From Bacteroidales bacterium (GTDB taxonomy: Bacteria > Bacteroidota > Bacteroidia > Bacteroidales > VadinHA17), in the NCBI GenBank assembly GCA_038248855.1, contig JBBRXA010000010.1:1315-65314 (forward strand): 64,000 bases of DNA, written 5' to 3'. Under the pieces are notes generated by a model that had not been told where the DNA came from, did no database searches, and worked only from the letters and a program-made list of their open reading frames with translations. The position numbers and the translations under genes are program-made. This document shows, one piece after another, positions 53,410-59,437 of the stretch. Position 1 is the stretch's first letter, and every line of letters starts with the position of its first letter.

Positions 53410-53417
<8 letters not shown>

Positions 53418-53964
53418 CCTTCGGCTTAAATATCAGTGAATTGATAAGCGTATGCTCATCAATGTTCACTTTGGCTGCGTCTGAAGAGTGCGGTAAAACC
53501 CTGTCGCTGATAACCTGAATCTGGTATTCACCGGCCTCGCTGAAAAAGACCGAACCCATGTGGGAGTCAGCCCTGAACCAGGGAGACCTGACATTTTTAT
53601 CATCTGTTACAATCTCATCACCCACCGGCACTTTTTCAATCCTGGTATCACCTGCCGTGATTGTCACATTATCTGCATACAGCAGGTTGGAAGTATCAGA
53701 TGTAATGCTTGACAACCACACGTCATACCTTCCCGGTTTATCAACTTTAAAACTCCATTCTGCAGTATTGTACTCCGGATTCGAATCAACCTGCATCAGA
53801 TCTGCATTTTCAATCAGCAGCGTAACGCCACCGTCATGGCCTGGTATTCTGTCAATCTTTCCAACGGGCTTTGAGCCGTCGGTTCCCTTATTGTCCTTAC
53901 ACGATACTATTATAAATATGATGACAAGGACAATTCCTCCTGTCTTTCTAAGCAATTCTCTCAT
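53410..53964 (-). CDS. hypothetical lipoprotein
   Basis: The internal start gives MRELLRKTGGIVLVIIFIIVSC (lipobox). The rest looks beta-rich and CBM-like. The 3' end overlaps the purL stop by 8 nt. Confidence 0.4.
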
Positions 53965-54108
53965 TTTTTCGGATGAATTATTAGAAATGAATAACGTCAA
54001 AAACCGTTCCATAGTATTCTGGAAGTCTTTGATGGCTGCAAACAAAATTCAAAAAGGAATGACTCAAACGCCTAACCTGCTCTTTATTCAATCTTTAAAT
54101 AGTAGTTT

Positions 54109-56001
54109 TCAACTGTTGTCAACGCGGTGAAGCACTTTCTTCCTGGTGCTCCTGGCCGTTTTTTTGAACTCCGGCAATGCCTCGGCCACGAGTTCGGCAA
54201 TATCAGTCACCCTTGTTTCCGTTGCCGGACTGAAGGTTTTCCTGCAAAGCGGACAGGCAGTAATGAGTGCGTCAGGAGCACCCGAGGTAAGTATCTTTGC
54301 TGCATCCTTCGCAATCAGCATTCGCTTCTCCGACGCGATGTGCATATTAGCGAGGCTTCCGCCGCAACAGAGAGACATTGACTCTTCCTGACGGGCAGGC
54401 TGTAGATCAGCCACATAGCTGATCACCGCCCTGGGCTCCTCATAGACTCCGGACCCTCTGCCGAGATCGCAGGGGTCATGATAGACAACTTTCTTATGCA
54501 GGTACCCGGGCCTGAGAGACCCCTCTTCTATGAGCAGATTGATGAATTCTGAGTGATGCATTACCGCGGCATCAAGATAATAGCTTTCTTTAAAGACCTT
54601 GTAACATATGGGGCAGGAGGTTACAAGTATCTTTGCACCTGATTTCCAGATTATATCAGAATTGTGATTGATGAGTTCTCTCGCCTCCTTGTCTCTTCCT
54701 GCCAGCATAAGCGGCCTCCCGCAGCATACCCCTCCGGATTCATCCATAAAGTGCCATCTTACTCCGGCGCTCTCCATTATCTTCTTCATAGCCTCTATGA
54801 CAGAGGGTGTAAGATGTGTCATGCACCCGGCGAAGAACAGTATGTCAGCCTTCACGGGGTCCGGCTTCCTAAGGTAACCGTATGAATGAGTTGGTTCTTT
54901 CTCCGCAACAGCCACAGTCTTTTTGAGTGTATACCTGTCAAGGAACTTCAACGGCTCAGCTGACCGTCTTTCCTGACGCCTCTGGATCAGGCGAAGTGGC
55001 CCCAGCTCAATTCCCACCGGGCACACTTCCTCGCAACGGCCGCACATGAGACAGTTCATTGTAATGTCAGTGATGTCCCTGCCGTCACGCAGTCCCTTGA
55101 TGAAGTAGGTAGACTGTATATCGTTTATCCCTGCAGCATAGCTCATCTGGCAGGTGCCGATACAGATGCCGCATGACGAGCATGCATGTACCTGCACTTC
55201 GGCATAAGAGGAAGTCCTGTCTCCTGTTTTGATTCCTGAGTTACGCATAAAGATCAGGAACAGTTCGACGGGTATGTGAAAATAGCGTGAAGCCGGGAGG
55301 AGAAAGAAAAAAGTACCCAGGGAAAGCGAGTAGAGCCACCAGAAATAAGGTGCCGTCTCAGCTGCCGGGAGAAATGATGCGAGTGCAGCGCCTAAATTAC
55401 CTGTCAGGAAACTTCCTGTCCCGTGGGCCCCGCAGGTGAAACTCTCAGCCAGAAGTCTGGAGGGAAATATGAGCCAAAGGCTGATGAGTGCGATGCGGTC
55501 CGTCCAGGTATGCCTGGTACGTTTTTTCATCCCCACGGTCTTCGGAATGAACCGCTTGACAATAGCAATCAGCAATCCCGAAAGGATAAATGCGAGGAGG
55601 AAATCCATCCATATACCGTAGATCTTTGCGAAACCTGCCTCACCGTGTTCAGGATTAAAAAACCGGAAAAAGATGGCTTGGTCCGGCGGGTTAAGGTGCT
55701 TCTCACCGAAGAAGTCAGCCTCTATGGTGCCGAAAACGATAAGCAGGAACCAGCCGAAGGCGAGGCTCATGTGCATATAGCCAAGGACAGGGTTATCCTT
55801 GAAAATCCGTCTGTGAAGCAGGCTCTCGTTGAAAATCTCTTTAATGCTCTCCATAAAGGGTCTTCCGAAGAAACCTCTCTGAAGACGTAGCTTGTCAGGC
55901 CGCGACAGGTCGCGAAACCATATCACGCTCCTGATTACGCTGTAGATCAGGATGAAATACAGCCCCAGGTTGAACGGCAGTAAGAACAGCTCAGAGTTCA
56001 T
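54109..56001 (-). CDS. membrane-anchored Fe-S protein: NarI/DsrM/HdrE-like 5-TM domain fused to an HdrD/DsrK-like module (2x 4Fe-4S plus 2x CCG)
   Basis: The N-terminal 250 aa have ~5 TM segments with conserved His. Ferredoxin motifs CSSCGICIGTCQ and CLMCGRCEEVCPVG. CCG motifs (VCCGRP...CPICYK; LCCGGS...CPLCRK). Confidence 0.75.
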   Translation of the reverse strand: MNSELFLLPFNLGLYFILIYSVIRSVIWFRDLSRPDKLRLQRGFFGRPFMESIKEIFNESLLHRRIFKDNPVLGYMHMSLAFGWFLLIVFGTIEADFFGEKHLNPPDQAIFFRFFNPEHGEAGFAKIYGIWMDFLLAFILSGLLIAIVKRFIPKTVGMKKRTRHTWTDRIALISLWLIFPSRLLAESFTCGAHGTGSFLTGNLGAALASFLPAAETAPYFWWLYSLSLGTFFFLLPASRYFHIPVELFLIFMRNSGIKTGDRTSSYAEVQVHACSSCGICIGTCQMSYAAGINDIQSTYFIKGLRDGRDITDITMNCLMCGRCEEVCPVGIELGPLRLIQRRQERRSAEPLKFLDRYTLKKTVAVAEKEPTHSYGYLRKPDPVKADILFFAGCMTHLTPSVIEAMKKIMESAGVRWHFMDESGGVCCGRPLMLAGRDKEARELINHNSDIIWKSGAKILVTSCPICYKVFKESYYLDAAVMHHSEFINLLIEEGSLRPGYLHKKVVYHDPCDLGRGSGVYEEPRAVISYVADLQPARQEESMSLCCGGSLANMHIASEKRMLIAKDAAKILTSGAPDALITACPLCRKTFSPATETRVTDIAELVAEALPEFKKTARSTRKKVLHRVDNS

Positions 56002-56341
56002 TCCTGTCGTATTTCATTATTGCTTCGGCTGCAAGTGCCGCCACATTGCGGGTATTCACACCGCGCGGACAAATAAGCTGGCATTTACCGCATAGCATGC
56101 ACCGTGATACTTCCTCGCGCAGAGGTGCTATTTCACCGCGCCGGATGAGCGTGGTCATCCTCCTGAGATTGAAAGAGGCGTGCTGTCCCGCGGTGCAGGT
56201 TGCAGTGCACCCCCCACAGGCAAAGCAAAGCCTGAAGCTCGGCTCTCTCTCGGTAATATACTGTCTGACCTTCCTGTCCGAAGTGTCATAGTCTATGAGC
56301 CTGCTCTTGTTTATATGGAACCCGAATCTGTCCATTCTCAA
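55991..56341 (-). CDS. small 2x[4Fe-4S] ferredoxin (HdrC-like)
   Basis: 116 aa with CFACGGCTATC and CMLCGKCQLICPRG. 11-nt overlap with the downstream gene. Confidence 0.7.
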   Translation of the reverse strand: MRMDRFGFHINKSRLIDYDTSDRKVRQYITEREPSFRLCFACGGCTATCTAGQHASFNLRRMTTLIRRGEIAPLREEVSRCMLCGKCQLICPRGVNTRNVAALAAEAIMKYDRNEL

Positions 56342-56345
56342 CGGA

Positions 56346-57377
56346 TCACTTTGAGGAGAGGTATTTCACGGCTTCGACGGCTGCCGCCCTGGCATGGGAA
56401 ATTGTATCGGTGATATTCATCGGGGCAGTGCAGGTGCCGGCATAGAATACGCCCTTCATCCTGCTCATGTTGCTGCCGTAGTGATGATCTGTGCTCTCCA
56501 GAAACCTGTTGATCCCTGTGGCTAAACCCGATGCCTCTGCCAGCTTTGTGCCGGCCTTCGACATTTCCATGCCAGTCATCAGAACGAGAAGGTCGACTTC
56601 CATCTTCAGAGGTCTCCCTGCAAGTGTATCCTCCACTTTCAGAGCCACTCTCTTCTTCATAGTTCCGGAAGCTTCCGAGACCTTTCCCCTGATATAGTTC
56701 ACATTGTATTTCTCCTGTGACTCACGGTAAAGCTCCTCGTAAAACGGACCGAACATGCGCATATCCATATAAAAACAAAACACTTCGCACCCGGGCAGCT
56801 TCTCTCTCACTTCTATAGCCTGCTTAACGGCAGTGACGCAGCACACCTTCGAACAGTGTTCGTTGCATACTTTCTCGTCACGTGAGCCCACACAGTGGAC
56901 AAAACCGATGCGGTCAGGGACCCTGCCGTCAGATGTGAGGAGCCTGTCGTCACTGAACATCTGTTCGAGGTCGGCGGAGGTTATGACATTGTCATAGATT
57001 CCGTAACCGTACTCTTCCTTGCGCCGTGCGTCGAAGAGATCGAAGCCTGTTGCCACAATGACGGCATCGGCTTTCATCGTTGTGCCGCCTGAAATCAAGA
57101 CAGTAAGACCGCCGCCGTACCGCTCGATCTTCTCCACTGAAGTCCCGGCGATGAATCTGATATTTTCGTTTTCGATCCGTTTTTCAAGGTACCCTGTAAC
57201 CTCACCGGCAGGCCTTCTGTCAGGGAAGAGGGCATGCCACTTTGAAACATGTCCGCCCGGATTTCCCTCCTTCTCCAAAATACTGACCGAGTGACCCAAA
57301 TCGGCAAGGACTCCCGCCGCCTCGATCCCCGCGACGCCGCCGCCGGCAATGATTACATGCTTTGACATCACGATCAT
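56346..57377 (-). CDS. short HdrA-like FAD/Fe-S oxidoreductase
   Basis: VIIAGGGVAGIEAA dinucleotide fold. HCVGSRDEKVCNEHCSKVCC is the HdrA [4Fe-4S] signature. At 343 aa it lacks the ferredoxin and insert domains of methanogen HdrA. ATGA overlap with the upstream gene. Confidence 0.8.
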   Translation of the reverse strand: MIVMSKHVIIAGGGVAGIEAAGVLADLGHSVSILEKEGNPGGHVSKWHALFPDRRPAGEVTGYLEKRIENENIRFIAGTSVEKIERYGGGLTVLISGGTTMKADAVIVATGFDLFDARRKEEYGYGIYDNVITSADLEQMFSDDRLLTSDGRVPDRIGFVHCVGSRDEKVCNEHCSKVCCVTAVKQAIEVREKLPGCEVFCFYMDMRMFGPFYEELYRESQEKYNVNYIRGKVSEASGTMKKRVALKVEDTLAGRPLKMEVDLLVLMTGMEMSKAGTKLAEASGLATGINRFLESTDHHYGSNMSRMKGVFYAGTCTAPMNITDTISHARAAAVEAVKYLSSK

Positions 57378-58435
57378 GAATTGATAAGATTGGCAGGTTC
57401 CGGCAACATGCTGCCGTCCTTTGCCAGGAATCTCTTTTCAGGATCGGCCTTGATGCCCATTTTACGCAGCAGGGGGAGAGCCTGAACATTATGGAACTGT
57501 AACCCTGTGATCCATGGATCATAACCAAGGACCAGGGCAGCCATCTCCTCATATGTCAGAACCGGGATGCCTGCATTGTAACCTCCGTATGTCACATCGT
57601 CAATCTCTTTTATGGTATACTGCCACCGGTCCATGAACATAGCGCAACCAGGGCAGTTAGCTACTATCATATCTGGTTTGTAGGGCTCCATTGATTCGAA
57701 TTTCTTGCGCGAAGCCGAAATGGAGTAGCCCCTGTTTGCCTGCACCAGATACTGTCTGAAACCGAAGCCGCAGCAATGGCGTCGCTCTGGATAGTCGATG
57801 ACATCGCCTCCCCATGACTCGATCATCCCTACAAGCACGTGCGGGAATTCCGCTCCGCCGATCCCGTGTTTGGGGAACATTTTGGCATAATGACAGCCTA
57901 TATGCTCCACCACTTTCAAAGGTTTGCCGGTGGTAATATCACAGAGTTGATACTTCGCCTTGCGGGCTATTTCATCCCTGAATTTGTAAATAACATCGCT
58001 TGCATGAGCTATTGATTCCGGTAGGTCAAACTGACGGCCGGTTGCTTTAAACAGGTTCTCCCGGGTTTTTGCCAGCAGCTCCGGAAAATGCTTCCATGTC
58101 TCAAGTATCTCGGTATAAATGCCGAAGGAGGTGACACAGGAGATAGCGATATTCTTGTATCCTGCCTCGGTGGCAAGCGCAAAATGGCGGGCGACAACCG
58201 TGGAAATCGTCTCAAAAGGCACAATGTCACCGTGATAACCTATGCCGGTACAGGTTGTATGTCTTGGGTCCTCGAAAATATCCTTGCCGAGGTCATCGCG
58301 CATGATCTTCAGAAATATCTGCTCAGAGCCGGCAAAGAATGTCTGCCTGATACATGACCTGACATAAAAGAAATGATCATCGGGGATATTCTTCTGGTAT
58401 TCAGCCCAGATCCTCTTTTTACCTTCCAGTTGCAT
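57374..58435 (-). CDS. HdrB-like CCG-domain protein
   Basis: 353 aa. The C-terminal CCG domain is intact (HCCGFG...CPGC). The N-terminal domain is degenerate (TTCTG in place of CCG). Confidence 0.7.
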   Translation of the reverse strand: MQLEGKKRIWAEYQKNIPDDHFFYVRSCIRQTFFAGSEQIFLKIMRDDLGKDIFEDPRHTTCTGIGYHGDIVPFETISTVVARHFALATEAGYKNIAISCVTSFGIYTEILETWKHFPELLAKTRENLFKATGRQFDLPESIAHASDVIYKFRDEIARKAKYQLCDITTGKPLKVVEHIGCHYAKMFPKHGIGGAEFPHVLVGMIESWGGDVIDYPERRHCCGFGFRQYLVQANRGYSISASRKKFESMEPYKPDMIVANCPGCAMFMDRWQYTIKEIDDVTYGGYNAGIPVLTYEEMAALVLGYDPWITGLQFHNVQALPLLRKMGIKADPEKRFLAKDGSMLPEPANLINS

Positions 58436-59168
58436 GTCCTTTACTTATAACTTCCTCAATTTCAATCTGGTGCTTACCGCTGTCAGCAGTAACTACATGC
58501 CGGAAATATTCAAAATCCCGGCCTTCCCTTTTAAACTCCAGATTCATTTCCGCGGCCTTCAGTTCGGAAGCCTCCTCTATGGCGTCATAGAGATCCTGGC
58601 CGCCGGTCACTTCGAAAATATTCTTCAGTTCCTGCAATACGTCGTCGCTAATTTTGCGCGTCGGGCCTTCTTTACCGTTAAGTTCACCCCCGACGCGTGC
58701 GAGTGAGTCATCCATGTGATTAAAATAGTGTTCCCATGCCGGGCCCTGTTCAGGGTGAGAGTTCGGGTCCACATCATATGATACCACGCAGTATCCGTGT
58801 TTCAGAATGTTGTCACCTACGGTCCGTTTGATGGCAAACTGCTGCCTCCCCTTTTCTGAATCTGTAAAGTAGCCGAGCTCCTGCGAGACTTTGCGCAGTG
58901 CCATGATGACCATACCGGGGGTGTTGCCGCGCGGGCAGCGGGTCTTGCAGCTCATGCACTGACCGCAGTACCAGATTGTTTCGCTTTTCAGGAGTTGCAG
59001 GATTGTGTCGTTGTTTCTGGTCTGTACAAGATCCACTACCCTCCTGGGGTCATAGTTGTAGTACTCCGCTGCCGGGCATATGCCAGTACAAACACCGCAG
59101 TTCATACAGGCATTGAGACCCTCCTCAAACCTTACGTCCTTCATTAACCTTGTATAGAGATCTTCCAT
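58419..59168 (-). CDS. HdrC-like 2x[4Fe-4S] protein
   Basis: CMNCGVCTGICP and CGQCMSCKTRCPRG motifs. Start moved to ATG 59168 (MEDLYTRL) because the -7 box lies inside the longer ORF. Confidence 0.75.
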   Translation of the reverse strand: MEDLYTRLMKDVRFEEGLNACMNCGVCTGICPAAEYYNYDPRRVVDLVQTRNNDTILQLLKSETIWYCGQCMSCKTRCPRGNTPGMVIMALRKVSQELGYFTDSEKGRQQFAIKRTVGDNILKHGYCVVSYDVDPNSHPEQGPAWEHYFNHMDDSLARVGGELNGKEGPTRKISDDVLQELKNIFEVTGGQDLYDAIEEASELKAAEMNLEFKREGRDFEYFRHVVTADSGKHQIEIEEVISKGHATGR

Positions 59169-59192
59169 TCTTCTTCCTTTTATCCGGAAGTT

Positions 59193-59200
59193 CAAAATTA
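59193..59200 (-). promoter_or_regulatory. -7 box (TAATTTTG on minus strand)
   Basis: TAnnTTTG match 24 nt upstream of ATG 59168. Candidate promoter of the hdr-like operon. Confidence 0.45.
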
Positions 59201-59332: not shown

Positions 59333-59437
59333 TTAGGGAGGAGGCAGACTGTGGGGAGAACTAATCTCATTATTTTGAGGCTTGTTGCATGATGCAACCA
59401 GGGCGATGACAGCAATGAGCAGAATAATATTTTTCAT
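59333..59437 (-). CDS. unannotated 34-aa lipoprotein candidate
   Basis: ATG 59437-59435, stop 59335-59333: MKNIILLIAVIALVASCNKPQNNEISSPHSLPPP, a textbook signal peptide plus lipobox (LVAS|C). Below the ORF-track length cutoff. Confidence 0.35.
   Translation of the reverse strand: MKNIILLIAVIALVASCNKPQNNEISSPHSLPPP

Follow-up and report, generated by a model that had tools for sequence, protein, structure and literature searches.

A conserved five-gene cassette of Bacteroidales joins an sHdr-like core to an EtfD-like membrane subunit and may link sulfur chemistry to menaquinone

What does a heterodisulfide reductase (Hdr)-like operon with its own membrane anchor do in a member of the Bacteroidales? 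The operon considered here lies in a 64,000-nucleotide stretch (the window) of contig JBBRXA010000010.1, from a Bacteroidales metagenome-assembled genome (MAG; GCA_038248855.1; 2.97 Mb, 98.6% complete), and consists of five open reading frames (ORFs). We refer to its soluble subunits as C1, B1, A and C2, to its 630-residue membrane fusion subunit as F, and to the five genes together as the cassette. The architecture of the cassette, the ligands of its cofactors, its homology and its conservation are established by the comparisons below. What they suggest, with a probability that we put at roughly 45%, is that the five proteins would form one membrane-bound Fe-S flavoprotein complex passing electrons between menaquinone and a cytoplasmic site of the B1 type of the sulfur-oxidizing Hdr-like (sHdr) system, with the oxidation of sulfane sulfur to sulfite as the likeliest chemistry.

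The ORFs lie on the minus strand and are joined, as listed, by overlaps of 17, 4 and 11 nt and one 4-nt gap; re-reading their coordinates in the window (Table 1) bore out the initial annotation in both respects. Their domains were assigned with Pfam and NCBIfam models, by which F has a hydrophobic N-terminus ahead of its Fer4 and two CCG domains, and the HdrA-like ORF of 343 residues contains the motif CVGSRD...CSKVCC. We compared 40 loci from different Bacteroidales families, each with its 20-kb neighborhood. The identical five-gene order was found in 37 of these and the order C1-C2-F-B1-A in two, both from family f145, while no further gene was common to the neighborhoods. This arrangement is far above chance, and the cassette acts as an autonomous module. 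All predicted cofactor ligands are invariant among orthologues sharing 37-93% identity, and the persistence of both gene order and ligands dispels the initial concern that the operon might be patchy and non-conserved among relatives. Based on the overlapping or 4-10-nt junctions, the co-occurrence in 37/40 loci with unrelated flanks and the invariant ligands, we treat the five genes as one unit.

The distribution of the cassette was followed by counting F in an evenly drawn sample of 401 Bacteroidales species genomes. About one third carry it (138 genomes, representing 98 of 237 genera), including 20 of the 40 genomes of the host's own family and all three of its genus, and at the genus level presence or absence is consistent. 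Full-length matches to F were found in only 2/400 genomes of an even sample of the phylum. A pattern scan of species genomes raised the number of carriers to at least 590; the 80 best matches all belong to uncultured MAGs of Bacteroidales, Rikenellaceae, Marinilabiliaceae or Prolixibacteraceae, recovered from fens, peat, lake sediment, soil and digesters.

A few loci depart from the common arrangement. Variant cassettes occur at L065, L081 and L087 (families f145 and f99) and at L084 (f166). A 356-residue protein of the glyoxalase/VOC fold precedes those of the C1-C2-F-B1-A order; L087 has C1-C2-F with neither B1 nor A within 3 kb; and L084 has A-C2-F, with a 2131-residue ORF in front taking the place of C1-B1. 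C1-C2-F and B1-A may be two modules that can occur apart.

To which Hdr family does the soluble core belong? The best match of A in the PDB is the Hyphomicrobium denitrificans sHdrA (6TJR), which aligns over nearly its whole length (residues 6-337 against 2-337, E 1e-61); methanogen HdrAs align to A over residues 100-340 only. An exhaustive search for relatives of A led to short proteins of ~340 residues. At 41-45% identity, all four whose context was checked lie inside the same five-gene cassette, and a relative at 39% lies inside a type I sHdr cluster at a metagenomic locus, L097, in the order TusA-DsrE-DsrE-C1-B1-A-H-C2-B2-LbpA-Trx-DsrE-LbpA-LipS. Each soluble protein of the window is most similar to its own counterpart at that locus (C1 to sHdrC1, 31%; B1 to sHdrB1, 27%; A to sHdrA, 39%; C2 to sHdrC2, 31%), and B1 scores 98 bits against sHdrB1 vs 39 bits against sHdrB2.

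Subunit B1, the most conserved of the five (65% mean column identity), provides a more specific marker. Its second, C-terminal CCG set is complete (C181, C221, C222, C261 and C264) and in its degenerate N-terminal set three of the five Cys are left (C28, C62-T63 and C100). The resulting first-CCG pattern, C...(T)C-T...C-x-TSFG, is a derived feature shared with the sHdrB1 of L097 and absent from methanogen HdrB, and the second CCG domain of both proteins carries CCGFGFR. The cluster ligands of A (C162, C175, C179 and C180) are invariant in its orthologues, as are eight cluster Cys and C136 of C1 in 36 orthologues and eight Cys of C2 in 26-33. As judged from these sequence comparisons, the assignment of the C1-B1-A core to the sHdr type, rather than to a methanogen-, Qmo- or Flx-like type, is supported, and the initial suggestion of a short, sHdr-like HdrA and core has held up on the full-length match to 6TJR, the degenerate motif of B1 and the best hits to the L097 counterparts.

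Two related proposals fared less evenly. The 116-residue dicluster ferredoxin is the counterpart of sHdrC2 and not of sHdrH, the "small protein" of the sHdr order; tblastn searches with the L097 proteins found neither sHdrH nor a soluble sHdrB2 in the genome. A phylogenetic placement of HdrA had also been proposed. In a quick maximum-likelihood tree, which is unrooted, poorly resolved at its base and built with one context-verified type I sHdrA and without Qmo, Flx or type II references, the cassette HdrAs group together (approximate likelihood-ratio test support 96), apart from that type I sHdrA and from the long multidomain HdrAs.

In public annotation the membrane subunit, F, is named "(Fe-S)-binding protein" or "Fe-S oxidoreductase". 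Its AlphaFold2 (AF2) model, with a predicted local distance difference test score (pLDDT) of 88.6 and a predicted template-modeling score (pTM) of 0.84, contains five long transmembrane helices, an HdrC-like domain and two CCG domains. The sole whole-chain structural match is Mycobacterium smegmatis EtfD (9OJN; Foldseek E 1.6e-21, query template-modeling score (TMq) 0.69, 18% identity), and the next matches are HdrB chains that cover the C-terminal part only. In EtfD one heme b is held by His78 and His241 and menaquinone stacks on Phe85 and Phe230 (PMC13083937). H77 of F aligns to the heme ligand H78, and H77/H242 correspond to H78/H241, with W84 and F231 at the positions of F85 and F230. Across 44 F sequences 18 Cys and three His are invariant, H77, H242, W84 and F231 are all invariant, there is an additional invariant residue, His63, and no second conserved transmembrane His pair was found. 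Based on the alignment of H77 with H78, the invariance of H242, W84 and F231 and the lack of a second His pair, F most likely holds a single heme b on the cytoplasmic side (H77/H242) and an EtfD-like menaquinone site. The membrane domain had been described initially as NarI/DsrM-like; the five-helix, cytochrome-b/HdrD-type module stands, but with one heme-b His pair, as in EtfD, and not two. The heme-b ligand prediction suggested at that stage points to H77 and H242.

Despite its fold, F differs from EtfD at the Fe-S sites. In EtfD the first CCG motif reads C-T, leading to a linear [3Fe-4S] cluster, and His583 of a CxHC motif renders the second non-cubane cluster non-catalytic (PMC13083937). 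In all 44 F sequences both CCG motifs read C-C, and C-P-I-C stands in the position of the C-P-H-C of EtfD. As a control, stand-alone relatives of ~680 residues (L014-L018; Bacteroidota families f24 and f37) carry the EtfD signature, C-T and C-x-H-C, and these are probably the true electron-transfer flavoprotein (ETF):menaquinone oxidoreductases of aerobic Bacteroidota. The clusters of F are predicted to be open and Hdr-like, as opposed to the linear [3Fe-4S] and capped clusters of EtfD. F thus has the scaffold of EtfD/EMO/HdrDE (see also bioRxiv 10.64898/2026.08.18.745454) and keeps the ligand set of the catalytic cluster pair of HdrB/HdrD. Since both open, Hdr-type non-cubane sets are kept, F may be a second catalytic thiol/disulfide site in addition to an electron wire.

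From these features we infer how the five proteins would assemble, their coupling to quinone, their substrate and the direction of electron flow. The invariant ligands predict two cubanes in C1, one full non-cubane cluster and a three-Cys site in B1, flavin adenine dinucleotide (FAD) and one cubane in A, two cubanes in C2, and two cubanes, two non-cubane sites and one heme b in F. Electrons from the substrate at the non-cubane cluster of B1 would pass to the two cubanes of C1, from there to the [4Fe-4S] cluster and FAD of A and on to the two cubanes of C2, and then through the Fe-S clusters of F and its cytoplasm-side heme b (His77/His242) to menaquinone near W84/F231. Homology to the sHdr systems points to sulfane sulfur as the likeliest substrate; protein- or thiol-bound, it would be oxidized to sulfite as in the sHdr relatives, here without lipoate-binding proteins and with electrons entering the menaquinone pool directly, from which fumarate reductase or cytochrome bd would take them up. 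The coupling to quinone is supported by the EtfD fold match, by the heme and menaquinone residues and by the quinone/heme-b chain of the genome, which encodes fumarate reductase cytochrome b558, cytochrome bd and three UbiA-family prenyltransferases. There is also a precedent for the membrane link in the EMO of type II sHdr systems (PMC11094781).

A role in supplying sulfite is suggested by some neighbors of the cassette. Cysteate synthase consumes sulfite. A cysteate-synthase-like gene (CYS) lies 0.1-3.3 kb from the cassette, on the same strand, in five genomes of four families, on either side and in differing arrangements: CFAT-CYS-SDR-VOC-C1-C2-F-B1-A in f145, CFAT-CYS-C1-B1-A-C2-F in f187, CYS ~100 nt downstream of F in f89 (G431) and ~1.8 kb upstream of F in f99 (G787). 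The f145 arrangement includes the full sulfonolipid triad of CYS (a cysteate-synthase-like pyridoxal phosphate enzyme), CFAT (an AONS-family acyltransferase) and SDR (PMC11525784). CYS adjoins the cassette in 5 of the 21 genomes that have both, where we estimate that random placement would give ~0.06. The link between the cassette and CYS is therefore real but lineage-specific and not a general function, and the repeated independent joining to a sulfite-using enzyme supports a connection with sulfite. Sulfonolipid or cysteate supply as the general role was rejected, given that there is no genome-wide co-occurrence and that the host itself has no orthologue.

The sulfur metabolism of the host is in keeping with such a connection. 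No sulfite reductase (NIR_SIR), PAPS/APS-reductase-family protein or DsrC was found in the 98.6%-complete genome, nor any PAPS/APS-reductase-family protein or DsrC in two congeners. The host apparently cannot assimilate sulfate and would depend on reduced sulfur, and this lack of another route to sulfite supports, together with the CYS neighbors, a role in sulfite formation. The genome also contains, at C3:32026-33270 (L091:8026-9270, minus strand), an AONS-family acyltransferase that shares 61% identity with the CFAT-like gene of capnine-type operons, stays far short of the serine-palmitoyltransferase cut-off and has no CYS-like partner in the genome.

Two further loci, as read from their gene content, show menaquinone-linked inorganic sulfur metabolism in this fermenting host. 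The first (C11:53605-59130; L200:3606-9131, plus strand) is a polysulfide/thiosulfate-reductase-like operon, PsrA-PsrB-NrfD-YeeE-YeeE-rhodanese, in which a molybdopterin subunit, a Fer4_11 subunit and an NrfD anchor precede two half-size YeeE/YedE sulfur-transporter genes and the rhodanese gene; the second is a YeeE-YeeE-rhodanese locus on contig C51. The Psr/Phs-YeeE-rhodanese operon was rejected as a pathway partner of the cassette, as it occurs in 20/80 cassette-positive vs 30/80 cassette-negative genomes and is not associated with it.

Several observations weigh against sulfane-sulfur oxidation coupled to menaquinone. Published surveys describe sHdr systems as "always accompanied" by LbpA, TusA/DsrE and lipoate-assembly genes (PMC11094781). 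Lipoate assembly involves sLpl and LipS1/S2, and the accompanying sulfur transferases are TusA and DsrE2/E3, usually encoded within the cluster. None of these genes is linked to the cassette in the host genome or in the 40 loci, which extends to the genome and beyond it the initial remark that LbpA, DsrE and TusA are missing from the window. The cassette and CYS-like genes do not co-occur across the 401 genomes (both in 21, cassette only in 117, CYS only in 49, neither in 214; odds ratio 0.78, p = 0.41; like the other co-occurrence counts here, these treat related genomes as independent, so that p-values are indicative only), and the host has no CYS-like gene. The canonical MenA model, TIGR00751, has no match in the genome. 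This miss is not read as the absence of quinone, given that the genome encodes the cytochrome b of fumarate reductase, cytochrome bd and three proteins of the UbiA family. CCG-domain proteins also serve non-sulfur substrates, as in LutA, GlcF and GlpC. Lastly, with textbook potentials of about -40 mV for sulfite/S0 and -74 mV for menaquinone, the oxidation of sulfane sulfur by menaquinone is near equilibrium and its direction is not readable from sequence.

Possible substitutes for the sulfur-carrier proteins were sought in the genome. No GCV_H gene lies near the cassette in the 40 loci and LipS had no tblastn match in the genome, where the GCV_H domains, all away from the cassette, belong to a canonical gcvH and two membrane-anchored GcvH-like proteins. 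The latter are encoded in a cluster on contig C30 (C30:23276-31052; L007:3276-11052, minus strand), in which a 568-residue protein (signal peptide, periplasmic domain, transmembrane segment and cytoplasmic GcvH-like domain) comes before an NrfC-like 4Fe-4S protein and an NrfD-like membrane protein; a 236-residue, membrane-anchored GcvH-like protein is next, ahead of a histidine kinase and a sigma-54 response regulator. The lysine of these GcvH-like domains is seemingly one position off the canonical lipoyl-lysine. The membrane GcvH-like family is present in 54/401 Bacteroidales genomes, and as an LbpA substitute, together with NrfC/NrfD, it was rejected for lack of co-occurrence (both 22, cassette only 116, family only 32, neither 231; odds ratio 1.37, p 0.36). 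The only TusA domain in the genome is in a TusA-DsrE fusion (YedF-like) on contig C26 (L008:6342-8142, minus strand); it adjoins, directly upstream, a selD-like gene, which points to selenium metabolism, and it was likewise discarded. One lone DsrE gene stands beside doxX, unlinked to the cassette.

The near-equilibrium potentials and the resemblance of F to a competent HdrD make the reverse direction a serious rival. The same complex would then be a menaquinol-oxidizing terminal reductase of sulfite, persulfide/polysulfide or a (hetero)disulfide, as are HdrDE and DsrMK, with the CCG domains of F as its reducing site. By our calculation the textbook potentials slightly favor electron transfer from menaquinol to sulfite, HdrDE and DsrMK, the nearest membrane relatives by function, both reduce, and the host is an anaerobe with hydrogenases, fumarate respiration and the Psr/Phs-like operon with YeeE and rhodanese described above. 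F also keeps all ten Cys of two Hdr-type non-cubane clusters, with no capping His (PMC13083937). We nevertheless regard a reductase as unlikely: the C1-B1-A core is specifically of the sHdr type, which is known only from oxidizers; a consumer of sulfite beside a sulfite-consuming cysteate synthase is harder to rationalize than a producer; the genome has no DsrC and no substrate of the CoM/CoB type is expected; and the Psr/Phs operon is not associated with the cassette.

Two candidate thiol/disulfide sites, in B1 and F, would also suit a housekeeping enzyme, that is, a low-molecular-weight thiol or protein dithiol:menaquinone oxidoreductase that keeps the thiol/disulfide pool of the cytoplasm in balance with the quinone pool, for example under oxidative or sulfide stress, and has no dissimilatory role. 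Such a function would agree with the lack of linked sulfur-carrier genes, with an autonomous cassette in variable flanks and with the HisKA_3 kinase and LuxR-type regulator found just upstream of it in 5-6 of the 40 loci, and also in L095, which suggest conditional induction. However, no thiol-biosynthesis or thioredoxin genes are linked to the cassette, five subunits and about nine Fe-S clusters are heavy machinery for such a task, and the lineage-specific joining to capnine (cysteate) genes points to sulfite, and we find this explanation improbable. More improbable still is a non-sulfur function, either as a dehydrogenase (of hydroxy acids, for example) feeding menaquinone as LutABC, GlcDEF and GlpABC do, or with F as the host's ETF:menaquinone oxidoreductase. 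The CCG proteins LutA, GlcF, GlpC and LdhH are among the weaker NCBIfam and fold matches, but every core subunit matches Hdr/sHdr proteins best and there is no substrate-binding dehydrogenase subunit. EMO and EtfD are the closest solved folds to F, and EtfAB is encoded elsewhere in the genome (contig C18); yet etfAB is never adjacent to the cassette in the 40 loci, and F differs from the EtfD-type proteins of Bacteroidota at the very residues that make EtfD a pure wire. Oxidation of sulfane sulfur to sulfite, with menaquinone as acceptor, remains the reading we prefer.

The remaining features of the locus concern gene starts and neighbors (Table 1). For C1 the true start is most likely the ATG at 59168, which is favored by comparison with orthologues, as the listed TTG falls within the TAATTTTG box. 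The true start of C2 is most likely the ATG at 56335, by which the preceding gap would be 10 nt and not 4. The TAATTTTG element lies 25 nt upstream of the likely ATG of C1. The pattern TAnnTTTG was found 29 times in the window vs 31.7 expected by chance, and the case for a promoter is thus one of position only; the -7 box noted initially is present, but its motif is not enriched. The genes flanking the cassette in the window (purL, a DUF2961 protein and an M1 peptidase) are unrelated. The lipoprotein ORF downstream of F is kept beside it only in same-family loci (L048 and L049, 38-40%) and is probably not part of the core module. A 34-codon ORF in the intergenic region upstream of the cassette (59333-59437, minus strand) begins with a lipoprotein-like signal, MKNIILLIAVIALVASC...; it has no counterpart upstream of the cassette in related loci and is probably due to chance. 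An ABC transporter following the cassette in L187 was identified as PstCAB and set aside as a coincidental neighbor.

Table 1. Features of the cassette and its surroundings in the window
Feature	Coordinates	Strand	Basis
sHdrC1-like subunit (C1), 2x[4Fe-4S]	58419..59168	-	Fer4_8 and HdrC models; listed ORF 58419-59195, from TTG at 59195
sHdrB1-like subunit (B1), candidate catalytic site	57374..58435	-	HdrB models, PDB HdrB alignment
Short sHdrA-like flavoprotein (A), 343 residues, predicted FAD and one [4Fe-4S]	56346..57377	-	Best PDB match 6TJR
sHdrC2-like small ferredoxin (C2), 2x[4Fe-4S]	55991..56335	-	Fer4 and HdrC models; listed ORF 55991-56341 (116 residues), from TTG at 56341
Membrane subunit F, 630 residues, five transmembrane helices, 2x[4Fe-4S] and two CCG domains	54109..56001	-	AF2 model, Foldseek, Pfam/NCBIfam
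Candidate Bacteroidota -7 promoter element TAATTTTG	59193..59200	-	Sequence reading and pattern search
Predicted lipoprotein ORF, ~180 residues, directly downstream of F	53410..54045	-	No Pfam or NCBIfam match

Bacteroidales are the dominant group in the gut, the rumen, digesters and many sediments, and are regarded as fermenters that have a short respiratory chain to fumarate. That about one third of their species encode a conserved Fe-S/flavin/heme complex of five subunits leaves a sizeable blank in their energy or sulfur metabolism. At least 590 species genomes have relatives, compared with the 397 assemblies in the 2024 survey of both sHdr types, which used an older and smaller genome release (PMC11094781). 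As a quinone-linked sulfur oxidase or reductase, the complex would be an unrecognized step in anaerobic sulfur cycling, and could explain how anaerobes come by the sulfite for their sulfonolipids, gut lipids with immunological activity. A bolder proposal, which we hold as a tentative and rather doubtful one, is that the cassette represents a third type of sHdr, one that needs no LbpA, by which strictly anaerobic Bacteroidales would oxidize sulfane sulfur (of sulfide, polysulfide or cysteine persulfide) to sulfite with menaquinone/fumarate as acceptor and which, in some lineages, would supply the sulfite for making cysteate and sulfonolipid (capnine), for which an anaerobic source is missing. 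If so, it would constitute an unrecognized sulfur-oxidizing respiration in fermenters of gut, rumen, peat and sediment. As a natural hybrid, the cassette would also test if sHdr chemistry can do without lipoate-binding proteins and if non-cubane clusters of the Hdr type can be catalytic on an EtfD scaffold.

How does the cassette compare with known systems? We found no description of it in the literature on sHdr types, on Hdr in Bacteroidales/Bacteroidetes, on EtfD/EMO or on sulfonolipids, and no characterized complex with the same architecture, such as the initial annotation had named as a reason to reject its reading. It falls outside the 2024 survey because that survey required sHdrH-C2-B2 or etfAB in the cluster (PMC11094781). 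With the type I sHdr systems of H. denitrificans, Aquifex aeolicus and L097, it shares the order C1-B1-A...C2, the short HdrA of ~340 residues with FAD and one [4Fe-4S] and the degenerate first CCG motif of B1 (C...CT...C-x-TSFG); A is of the sHdrA type and B1 of the sHdrB1 type. Type I is defined by syntenic shdrC1, B1, A, H, C2 and B2 (PMC11094781), of which the cassette has C1, B1, A and C2 in order and lacks sHdrH and the soluble sHdrB2; where type I has the latter, it has a membrane protein with heme b from the EtfD/HdrDE family. Unlike type I, it also has a half-size C2 (114-116 vs ~250 residues), and its neighborhood is free of genes for LbpA, TusA, DsrE and lipoate assembly; B1 has an intact last CxxC, of which one Cys is left in the sHdrB1 of L097; and its hosts are anaerobic, fermenting Bacteroidales and not sulfur lithotrophs. 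In type II sHdr (shdrC1B1AHB3-etfAB-emo; Sulfobacillus, Chloroflexota and Actinobacteriota), EMO is proposed to pass sulfur-derived electrons to menaquinone (PMC11094781). Compared by description, the cassette has in common with type II the C1-B1-A core and an EMO-family membrane protein in the cluster, and is set apart from it by the absence of EtfAB, sHdrB3 and sHdrH from the cassette and by a membrane protein that keeps two Hdr-type CCG Cys sets. The ferredoxin C2 would stand in place of the type II ETF.

In HdrDE (Methanosarcina) and DsrMK (sulfate reducers and sulfur oxidizers), thiol/disulfide chemistry at non-cubane clusters is linked to a quinone-like carrier in the membrane. F resembles these in pairing a NarI-type cytochrome b with an HdrD/DsrK-type subunit and, like HdrD, has two complete CCG motifs. 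It differs from them in being one polypeptide and not two, in having one heme His pair (plus H63) in place of a separate di-heme cytochrome b, and in its position within an sHdrC1B1A operon. Their substrate is CoM-S-S-CoB or the DsrC trisulfide; the present host has no DsrC, DsrAB or NIR_SIR, and CoM/CoB metabolism is not expected in bacteria. The closest solved folds are those of EtfD/EMO (M. smegmatis 9OJN; Syntrophus aciditrophicus EMO), with which F shares the whole-chain fold, the five transmembrane helices, one cytoplasm-side heme b on the corresponding His pair, a menaquinone site with aromatic residues, and two cubane and two CCG-domain clusters, for which 8 + 10 invariant Cys lie in a single chain. 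It departs from them in its CC (not CT) first CCG motif and in the Ile that takes the place of the capping His of CxHC (both in 44/44 sequences, in place of the modified, non-catalytic clusters), and in having no linked ETF as donor, no long disordered tail and the extra invariant His63. The initial view that the complex fits neither the methanogen Hdr, nor Qmo, nor the described sHdr systems therefore agrees with our results, which pair an sHdr-like core, without sHdrH, B2 and LbpA, with an EtfD-like membrane subunit. Lacking LbpA, TusA and DsrE, the cassette falls outside the published definition of both sHdr types; we class it as working like an sHdr/EMO hybrid and as a member of neither.

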